A stretch of 37,859 nucleotides of DNA from Pseudomonas phage 41C, in sequence record PV880424.1, one strand, 5' to 3'. Of the stretch, positions 22,356 through 22,505 are shown in pieces. The notes below the pieces were generated by a model. The model was not told where the DNA came from, did no database searches, and worked only from the letters and a program-made list of their open reading frames with translations. Both the position numbers and the translations under genes were made by a program. Each line of letters opens with the position of its first letter. Within the stretch, counting starts at the first letter, position 1.

Positions 22356-22410
22356 AAGTCACCTTCTAGTTGCTGGAAAGAGAATAGGCTCTTAAGATGT
22401 ATCTTAGGAT

Positions 22411-22503
22411 ACTAACCTTCTTAGTAAGTAAGTCAAAAGGAAGAAGGAATCTTAAGAGCCTATAGGTCTATTATACTACATTTTGGATACTTTGTCAAGT
22501 ACC
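22411..22503. repeat. 92-bp direct repeat copy A (promoter plus leader)
   Basis: Near-identical (1 mismatch) to 37264-37356. Contains TCTTAAGA palindromes and an inverted pair GGCTCTTAAGAT / ATCTTAAGAGCC. Confidence 0.8.
22470..22498 (-). promoter_or_regulatory. consensus sigma70 promoter (TTGACA-17-TATAAT) on minus strand upstream of the 1055-aa gene
   Basis: The minus strand reads TTGACAaagtatccaaaatgtagTATAAT. It lies inside a 92-bp direct repeat shared with 37264-37356. Confidence 0.65.
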
Positions 22504-22505
22504 TT

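Follow-up and report, generated by a model that had tools for sequence, protein, structure and literature searches.

A duplicated late promoter with a putative structured leader built of CTTAAG boxes in the LUZ24-like Pseudomonas phage 41C

LUZ24-like phages of Pseudomonas aeruginosa are widely used therapy candidates and depend fully on the host RNA polymerase. The element described here is a promoter-plus-leader cassette that occurs twice in the DNA of Pseudomonas phage 41C (sequence record PV880424.1), of which the stretch analyzed (37,859 nucleotides, or 37.9 kb; referred to as the window) covers most of the genome of a LUZ24-like P. aeruginosa podovirus of the genus Bruynoghevirus. The window is 96–98% identical over 20 kb to PA_CQ9, Pa222, Arefeen1, and others, and about 95% identical to LUZ24 itself. 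The closest described counterparts of the cassette promoters are those of LUZ24, which reportedly come from a promoter trap by Ceyssens et al. in 2008. The LUZ24 record (GenBank AM910650) annotates exactly seven sigma70 promoters, of which three are on the minus strand (30312–30347, 44882–44917, and 45080–45115). A later study reports that seven LUZ24 promoters were obtained with a lacZ promoter trap, and ONT-cappable-seq confirmed four of them, P004–P006 and P016 (PMC10914365). The supplementary table of that study lists LUZ24 starts at 44883(−) and 17248(+) and none at the two duplicated promoters; according to its authors, the method may miss RNAs shorter than about 80 nt (PMC10914365). Phage tf has three promoters in its right half at positions matching those of LUZ24 (PMC3517423), and in PaP3 the whole minus-strand module, ORF1–21, is expressed late, and both chloramphenicol and an inhibitor of DNA polymerase block its expression (PMC4707531). 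This block implies that the consensus promoters are not simply constitutive in infection and makes further control plausible: the late promoters are perfect sigma70 sites, yet the late genes of PaP3 need protein synthesis and DNA replication. For the leader RNA, a likeness can be drawn to the 5′-terminal stabilizing stem-loops of bacterial and phage mRNAs, such as that of the ompA 5′ untranslated region.

The orthologues of the three minus-strand LUZ24 promoters lie in the window, in the same order, at 22470–22498, 37125–37153, and 37323–37351, and the first and third of these head the two copies of the cassette. Both are direct orthologues of LUZ24 30312–30347 and 45080–45115, with equal hexamers and spacing and a leader that is 98% identical, and their placement is the same in LUZ24, where one precedes gp50 and the second, near the right end, precedes the tRNA/terminase promoter. 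The LUZ24 record differs in that only the 36-bp promoters are annotated, with no duplication, leader, CTTAAG boxes, or stem. A literature search found no published mention of the duplication, the leader, or the boxes, and a paper on the phage transcription factor Gp53 refers to LUZ24 in passing and gives no CTTAAG motif (PMC13650114). What is already known is thus the pair of promoters, whereas the leader architecture, comprising box A, a phased array of boxes, the TTCCAGCAA motif, and the 5′-terminal stem of the internal copy, is new as far as we have found.

The pair of cassettes is genuine, and it is both conserved and non-random. The interpretation that we favor, with a probability of roughly 0.4, is that it represents a duplicated late promoter followed by a structured 5′ leader in which the boxes form helices. 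The cassettes would then be two paralogous late-gene start modules, each with a consensus host sigma70 promoter and an AT-rich structured leader; the right-end copy would head leftward transcription of late, tRNA, and packaging genes in tandem with a second promoter, and the internal copy would restart transcription ahead of a large virion protein gene. The CTTAAG palindromes would act mainly in the transcript, where box A at +7 could pair with the last box, and in the internal copy the predicted helix reaches +1 (15 bp here and ~30 bp in PaP3-type phages), so that the mRNA would be base-paired at its 5′ end. We infer that the helix forms in vivo, where it might shield late mRNA from 5′-end-dependent decay or provide a site for double-strand processing; either the helix or a short transcript may also explain why ONT-cappable-seq called no start at either LUZ24 copy. 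As in the ompA-type stem-loops, the predicted helix is within a few nucleotides of the mRNA 5′ end and leaves an accessible ribosome-binding site downstream. It differs from them in being long-range, enclosing ~50 nt, and in being built of palindromic boxes that are conserved in sequence, and its stabilizing effect is putative. A DNA-level role of the same boxes may coexist with the RNA role.

A repeat search of the window identified a direct repeat of 118 nt (22390–22507 and 37243–37360) with 108 of 118 positions identical (92%). Its core (22411–22503 and 37264–37356) contains two mismatches, at 22491 and 22503, and weaker homology with indels extends past the repeat as far as the TTCCAGCAA motif at 22370–22378 and 37211–37219. 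In a promoter scan, both copies have a minus-strand sigma70 promoter with 12/12 agreement with the consensus (TTGACA/TATAAT) and a 17-bp spacer. The cassettes have a GC content of 32–35% as compared with 52% for the window. The first-pass annotation of this DNA, made from the letters alone, was accurate in nearly all details. The perfect promoters that it described agree with the scan and with the annotated LUZ24 orthologues, and the CCTTCTT/AAGAAGG hairpin in the leader, the 13-mer ATAACCTTAAGGT at 37250 and 10369 (which includes the 10-base palindrome ACCTTAAGGT), and all five TCTTAAGA positions were exact. Two of its measurements needed correction: what it gave as a 92-bp repeat with one mismatch is a repeat, but of 118 nt and with a second mismatch in the core, and the inverted repeat bracketing the internal leader, given as 12 bp, is present and is perfect over 15 bp.

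The five exact TCTTAAGA sites (22390, 22450, 37232, 37243, and 37303) are all within the two copies. The first-pass annotation had named chance frequency as the check on this motif, and it is commoner than expected in the whole window (5 against 0.82, with none of 100 shuffles reaching 5), although three of the five sites are mutual copies and hence not independent events. The hexamer CTTAAG occurs 23 times in the window, compared with 8.7 expected, and eight of these sites are in three promoter-leader segments that total 498 nt, or 1.3% of the window, and for which 0.16 sites are expected from their own base composition (binomial P = 4e-10); elsewhere in the window it is near expectation. Because GATATC (z 6.9) and GTTAAC (z 4.6) show a genome-wide excess equal to or above that of CTTAAG, the signal from CTTAAG lies in its clustering and not in its genome-wide count.

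The internal copy is read on the minus strand. The promoter at 22470–22498, with 12/12 consensus positions, is followed by a predicted +1 at 22463. This position, seven bases beyond the −10 element, is assigned from the mapped starts of LUZ24 sister promoters, which are at the 6th–7th base after this element. The 5′ stem arm AUAGGCUCUUAAGAU (22449–22463) begins at the predicted +1 and holds box A (TCTTAAGA, 22450–22457). It is followed by the inner hairpin that forms the LUZ24-type core (CCUUCUU, an 18-nt loop, and AAGAAGG; 22416–22447, with CCTTCTT/AAGAAGG arms at 22416–22422 and 22441–22447), by a degenerate box B (22399–22412; RNA GUAUC-CUAA-GAUAC), in which CCTAAG replaces CTTAAG, and by the 3′ stem arm AUCUUAAGAGCCUAU (22384–22398), which holds box C (TCTTAAGA, 22390–22397). 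On the RNA-sense strand, the two arms constitute a 15-bp perfect inverted repeat, ATAGGCTCTTAAGAT and ATCTTAAGAGCCTAT (plus-strand positions 22449–22463 and 22384–22398, respectively). Downstream are the conserved TTCCAGCAA motif (22370–22378), the Shine-Dalgarno sequence AGAAGGUG (22360–22367), and the ATG (22353–22355) of a gene for a virion protein of 1055 residues (19188–22355, minus strand). A terminator scan of the window found no terminator-like site in either cassette; the stem between boxes A and C encloses ~50 nt, and nothing but UAUUCUCUUU comes after it, an arrangement that is not the GC-rich, short-loop hairpin with a U-run of an intrinsic terminator.

Leaders were folded from the predicted +1, set at the 7th base past the −10 element. 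The internal leader of the window folds with −33 kcal/mol (z −3.1) into a 15-bp stem that starts at nucleotide 1 and surrounds a 7-bp hairpin and a 5-bp mini-hairpin, and the internal leader of PaP3 type folds with −34.3 kcal/mol (z −5.2) into a near-continuous helix of ~30 bp, also from nucleotide 1; in both, none of 200 shuffles was as good, which makes the predicted helix unusually stable. In an RNAalifold analysis of eight internal leaders, the terminal 7 bp beyond the palindrome are retained. Within these 7 bp, a U-A pair of the four LUZ24-type leaders is replaced by A-U in the four PaP3-type leaders, which is a single compensatory change, and there is one change from G-C to G-U, which pairs only on the sense strand. 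Few further variants were obtained for covariation (four relatives from IMG/VR and one from a metagenome scan). These 7 bp of extra complementarity to +1, with a compensatory and a G-U change, argue for an RNA helix rather than two independent operators, and from the sequences such complementarity in two lineages would be hard to explain by operators alone.

The right-end copy comprises promoter P1 (37323–37351, minus strand, 12/12; orthologue of LUZ24 45080–45115) and a leader at 37232–37316 with box A at 37303–37310 and the CCTTCTT/AAGAAGG hairpin at 37269–37300. It also contains an array of three boxes with 11-bp spacing on the minus strand, ACCTTAAGGT at 37253–37262 and TCTTAAGA at 37243–37250 and at 37232–37239, and the conserved TTCCAGCAA motif is at 37211–37219. 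P1 is in tandem with a second minus-strand sigma70 promoter, P2 (37125–37153), which has a TG-extended −10 element and an upstream A-tract and whose LUZ24 counterpart has a start mapped at 44883 (P016). P2 drives four tRNA genes (36758–37086) and the packaging genes, and one CTTAAG is present downstream of it, at 37094–37099.

All cassette-type promoters were collected from 14 related genomes. In Bruynoghevirus they belong to two types with unrelated cores: (i) the LUZ24 type, with the CCTTCTT/AAGAAGG hairpin, and (ii) the PaP3/PhiCHU type, with a very AT-rich core; the CCTTCTT hairpin is absent from the PaP3-type cassettes in this set. Common to both types and both copies are the consensus promoter, ATAGGC at +1, box A with CTTAAG at +7, two (or three) boxes that are 11 bp apart (TTATCTTAAGATAGTCTTAAG), and a pyrimidine tract ending in TTCCAGCAA; only the promoter, the +1 ATAGGC, the CTTAAG boxes, and TTCCAGCAA are conserved between the types. 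The box B stem GUAUC/GAUAC is kept in relatives, and only its central bases vary (CUAA, UUAG, and CUAG). The internal copy with its boxes is conserved in all Bruynogheviruses examined. Outside the genus, in Vicosavirus and Krylovvirus, boxes recur downstream of the equivalent right-end promoter, although the neighboring virion protein of these phages is only 40–55% identical to that of the window. After this promoter, UFV-P2 has three CTTAAG boxes with spacings of 12 and 11 bp, NV1 has two boxes 11 bp apart, tf has CTAAGG, CTAAGG, and CTTAAG with spacings of 11 and 11 bp, and Rembedalsseter and BroderSalsa have one box each.

Several observations weigh against the structured-leader interpretation. 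In LUZ24-infected cells, neither cassette promoter had a called start, so that the +1 from which the leaders are folded is a predicted position. Folding is weak in the right-end copies (z −1.3 and −1.9), as it is in the right-end leader of tf (z −1.9), and that of UFV-P2 has no fold (z 0.2). The covariation sample represents two independent lineages and hence a single compensatory event, and in Rfam only the tRNAs reach the gathering score, with no credible match to the cassette at E ≤ 1. The CTTAAG sequence itself is conserved across genera beyond its pairing potential, with a spacing of 11 bp (12 in places). Some boxes are also in places where they would be transcribed in part or not at all: in UFV-P2 and NV1 a box joined to CTATAGAACC is also present 5′ of the promoter, and at plus-strand promoters the boxes straddle the start and are only half transcribed. 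The conservation of sequence, the phasing, and these upstream and start-site boxes fit a DNA-binding protein better than an RNA model.

Four other interpretations were considered and are taken in descending order of probability; together with the structured leader they are not mutually exclusive. The first, which we regard as somewhat unlikely, is that the CTTAAG boxes are DNA operators for a phage protein encoded by an orphan open reading frame (ORFan), or for a host protein, that would bind phased sites at or shortly after the starts of middle and late promoters and thereby gate their timing. The sites have the properties of operators: they are repeated, conserved, symmetric, and enriched at a promoter. 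Their 11-bp spacing, found in the window and in PaP3-type phages, recurs at 12/11 bp in UFV-P2, 11 bp in NV1, and 11/11 bp in tf although the sequence between the boxes is unrelated, and the sequence is conserved, beyond pairing, over three genera. A 6-bp stem with a 5-nt loop would, however, also be expected to give an 11-bp phase, and two of the tf boxes are CTAAGG, in which central symmetry is lost. A box straddles the mapped starts of the LUZ24 plus-strand promoters P006 and P010, and boxes are present upstream of P1 in UFV-P2 and NV1, but the remaining boxes are at +7 and at +60 to +90, and none is over the −35 or −10 hexamers. The PaP3-type equivalent of the plus-strand promoter at 10342 is boxless.

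A repressed state in infection would suit the operator interpretation, since two annotated consensus promoters have no called start in infected cells, although a promoter trap gave seven LUZ24 promoters, and since PaP3 late genes require new protein synthesis and DNA replication. A candidate protein was sought among 46 LUZ24 proteins, nearly all early, middle, or small hypothetical ones, and no helix-turn-helix, ribbon-helix-helix, Q-like, or other transcription factor was found (Pfam E ≤ 0.05, PHROGs, or both); the informative matches were HNH endonucleases, a Gp2.5-like single-stranded DNA-binding protein, a dGTP diphosphohydrolase domain, a metallo-phosphoesterase, and amidoligases. The extra 7 bp of complementarity to +1 and the strand-specific G-U change are unexpected for operators. 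The first-pass annotation had proposed a dedicated regulator, phage- or host-encoded, that times the switch between early plus-strand and late minus-strand transcription; this proposal is possible and supported in part, but no candidate protein was found among the 46 and the stem to +1 competes with it. The boxes are also not specific to late minus-strand promoters, because they occur at plus-strand promoters of the middle region and, in Vicosavirus, 5′ of the promoter.

The plus-strand sites are at a sigma70 promoter (10342–10381) whose start is straddled by ACCTTAAGGT (10372–10381). The same palindrome is present at the LUZ24 paralogues 4834 and 17213, where the starts 4869 (P006) and 17248 (P010) coincide with the fourth base of CTTAAG; P010 is the LUZ24 orthologue of the window promoter. 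These promoters also belong to a second duplicated promoter-leader family, TGTGGTATAATAACCTTAAGGTGYCCGGGGTTGCTTTA, on the plus strand, with a GGGG/CCCC hairpin at the RNA 5′ end (10342–10415 in the window; 4834 and 17213 in LUZ24); one copy is in the window and the other is upstream of it. The boxes were also compared by eye with sites for the GacA box, Fis, IHF, the GGA motifs of CsrA/RsmA, and the ARN repeats of Hfq, all of which mismatch at key consensus positions, and the nickase site of LUZ24-like phages (TACT/RTGMC) is unrelated. Lambdoid PR′ with its antiterminator Q offers a partial parallel, as a constitutive, consensus-like promoter with late genes that need phage protein synthesis. 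The cassette also has a −10-like TAAGAT at +10 to +15, and a short leader RNA is possible, but the stem is followed by no canonical terminator and no Q-like protein was seen among the 46 LUZ24 proteins scanned.

The second alternative, a serious minority view but an unlikely one, is that each cassette is a T7-type transcription-activated replication origin in which a host sigma70 promoter replaces the phage-polymerase promoter; a T7-like replisome would start in the AT-rich CTTAAG stretch, and the two copies would be analogous to the primary and secondary origins of T7. In T7, the origins, among them phi1.1A/1.1B and the right-end phiOR, depend on promoters (PMC8373140), and the primary origin includes a 61-nt A/T-rich cluster (PMC12839067). 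The cassettes likewise consist of a promoter and then an A/T-rich region (32–35% GC, against 52% for the genome), and the replisome of the phage is T7-like. The primase-helicase and DNA polymerase of the window match the same metagenomic T7-like loci as T7 gp4 and gp5, and a 5′-3′ exonuclease (from the LUZ24 annotation) and a Gp2.5-like single-stranded DNA-binding protein (phrog_112) are present. The tandem right-end promoters resemble phi1.1A/B, and directly 3′ of phi1.1B is GAACCTTAAGGTTTAACTTTAAGACCCTTAAG, which contains ACCTTAAGGT as at 37253 and 10372 of the window. The T7 primary origin therefore shares with the right end tandem strong promoters, an AT-rich stretch with ACCTTAAGGT and two CTTAAG-like boxes, and the replisome genes; it differs in its T7-polymerase promoters, in the irregular spacing of its boxes (13 and 10 bp), and in its middle box, which is CTTTAAG. 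AT-rich leaders, however, are common in phages, and the origin interpretation leaves the RNA stem to +1 unexplained. The related TTAACTTTAAG of T7 doubles as translation-initiation context. The secondary origins of T7 lack boxes, with no CTTAAG array within 110 nt of phiOR or phi6.5, so that the parallel is to phi1.1B alone, and the cassettes are origin candidates on the strength of their sequence.

When IMG/VR was scanned for triple CTTAAG spaced by 11 bp, 65 stretches were retrieved; the control scans gave 8 (GAATTC), 30 (CAATTG), and 15 (CTTAAG spaced by 14 bp). Seven of the 65 adjoin a gene for a T7-like single-subunit RNA polymerase, as against 1 of 53 control loci. In four contigs (L066, L056, L087, and L055), the array follows the stop codon of the polymerase gene by ~115–130 nt, which corresponds to the location of the primary origin in T7, and in the first three, genes for a T7-like primase-helicase are ~5 kb downstream. 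The enrichment over the controls is modest and involves few lineages, and a triple-box scan of genome contigs retrieved only unrelated taxa, none near T7-like genes. More broadly, arrays of CTTAAG boxes with ~11-bp spacing, placed just 3′ of a strong promoter, could be an origin cis element shared across T7-related podoviruses, a proposition that we consider unlikely; the group could include T7 phi1.1B, metagenomic T7-like phages with an array after the RNA polymerase gene, and LUZ24-like phages. Long perfect tandem arrays of 11-bp units with CTTAAG, for example (GGTAACTTAAG)n and (AGCTTCTTAAG)n, were also seen in unrelated viral contigs from IMG/VR (L053/L061, L057/L059, L054/L086, L070, and L088); one of these contigs, a T7-like phage of 44 kb, has its array ~2.7 kb upstream of the RNA polymerase gene.

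The third alternative, that the boxes have no function and that the copies are similar through selection for a consensus promoter and gene conversion between paralogous intergenic regions, appears improbable. The two copies within a genome are normally of one type, as homogenization would predict, and PaP3, a recombinant with one cassette of each type, is viable; it is 98–100% identical to the window from the terminal repeat to ~36810, in the tRNA-Pro gene, and PhiCHU-like beyond. In phage 1430, a tandem duplication of 41 bp has brought in two more boxes, and the internal copy of WS1160 bears the three-box array that is otherwise typical of the right end. Together with the PaP3 recombinant, this exchange and duplication lend modest support to the recombination-prone modularity that the initial description had offered as a second option; the notion that the cassette edges themselves are breakpoints was rejected because the PaP3 crossover is in the tRNA cluster. 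Absence of function would also accord with the genome-wide excess of GATATC and GTTAAC, but it does not account for the maintenance of box positions in two types with unrelated cores and in genera with 40–55% protein identity, or for the concentration of 8 of the 23 CTTAAG sites in 1.3% of the window. Finally, it is most improbable, on sequence grounds, that the right-end array is a candidate pac-like site for the small terminase subunit and the internal copy a by-product of duplication: the array is ~420 bp from the terminal repeat and just ahead of the gene for this subunit, composite repeats of CTATAG and CTTAAG fill the non-coding DNA of the right end in every genus examined, and pac sites such as that of P1 are arrays of short hexamer repeats, but the internal copy and its boxes are conserved in all Bruynogheviruses examined and boxes are also found at plus-strand promoters far from the genome ends.

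Whether as an RNA structure that sets the fate of the mRNA, as an operator, or as an origin linking late transcription to replication, a conserved cis element on exactly these late promoters is an obvious handle on the delay of late genes, and it is a tidy, testable one on a key step of the LUZ24-type infection program. For Pseudomonas engineering, the cassette offers a promoter-leader part that is compact, strong, and portable. The 11-bp-spaced CTTAAG arrays near T7-like RNA polymerase genes and at the T7 primary origin suggest that the element may be older and broader than the genus.

The window has the early and middle genes on the plus strand at 1–17.5 kb and the structural and packaging genes on the minus strand at 18–37 kb. 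Its last 183 bp (37677–37859) are the right copy of a direct terminal repeat of ~184 bp and match positions 1–183 of LUZ24 and PhiCHU with 89–91% identity, so that the second cassette copy falls within non-coding DNA at the right end. Three copies of GTTCTATAGGTATACCC(C)TAAG (37410–37436, 37488–37514, and 37513–37539) separate the terminal repeat from the right-end promoter, and related repeats containing CTATAG occupy 37410–37539; these repeats may be packaging or replication signals. In UFV-P2, NV1, and BroderSalsa, composite repeats of the form CTATAGAACC(TGTC)CTTAAGG flank the right-end promoter. The 9-mer CCGTTCGTC is present at 37392–37400 on the minus strand, ~40 bp 5′ of the right-end −35 element, and is kept in PaP3. 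It is, we presume, identical to the AlgR-binding core of the algD promoter, and any given 9-mer of this kind is expected ~0.3 times per window by chance. The tRNA cluster region (36758–37190) encodes tRNA-Asn, -Asp, -Tyr, and -Pro, and the A-tract of P2 resembles an UP element. The tRNA content varies, in that PhiCHU has three and LUZ24 has no blastn match to 36935–37010, the tRNA-Asp gene.

The 669-bp group I intron in the DNA polymerase gene of LUZ24 (19143–19811) is absent from the window, where its site is 12271–12274 and the polymerase gene (11128–12765) is uninterrupted. The most over-represented palindromic hexamer of the whole window is GATATC, with 31 occurrences against 8.8 expected, and CCCGGG, CTCGAG, and CTGCAG do not occur, with 10–14 expected for each; codon effects and restriction avoidance may be the cause. 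A near-consensus sigma70 promoter (TTGACA, a 17-bp spacer, and GATAAT) is present on the plus strand at 21031–21059, antisense within the gene for the 1055-residue virion protein, and its LUZ24 orthologue is the mapped start P014 (28915, plus strand), which gives a 214-nt antisense RNA.

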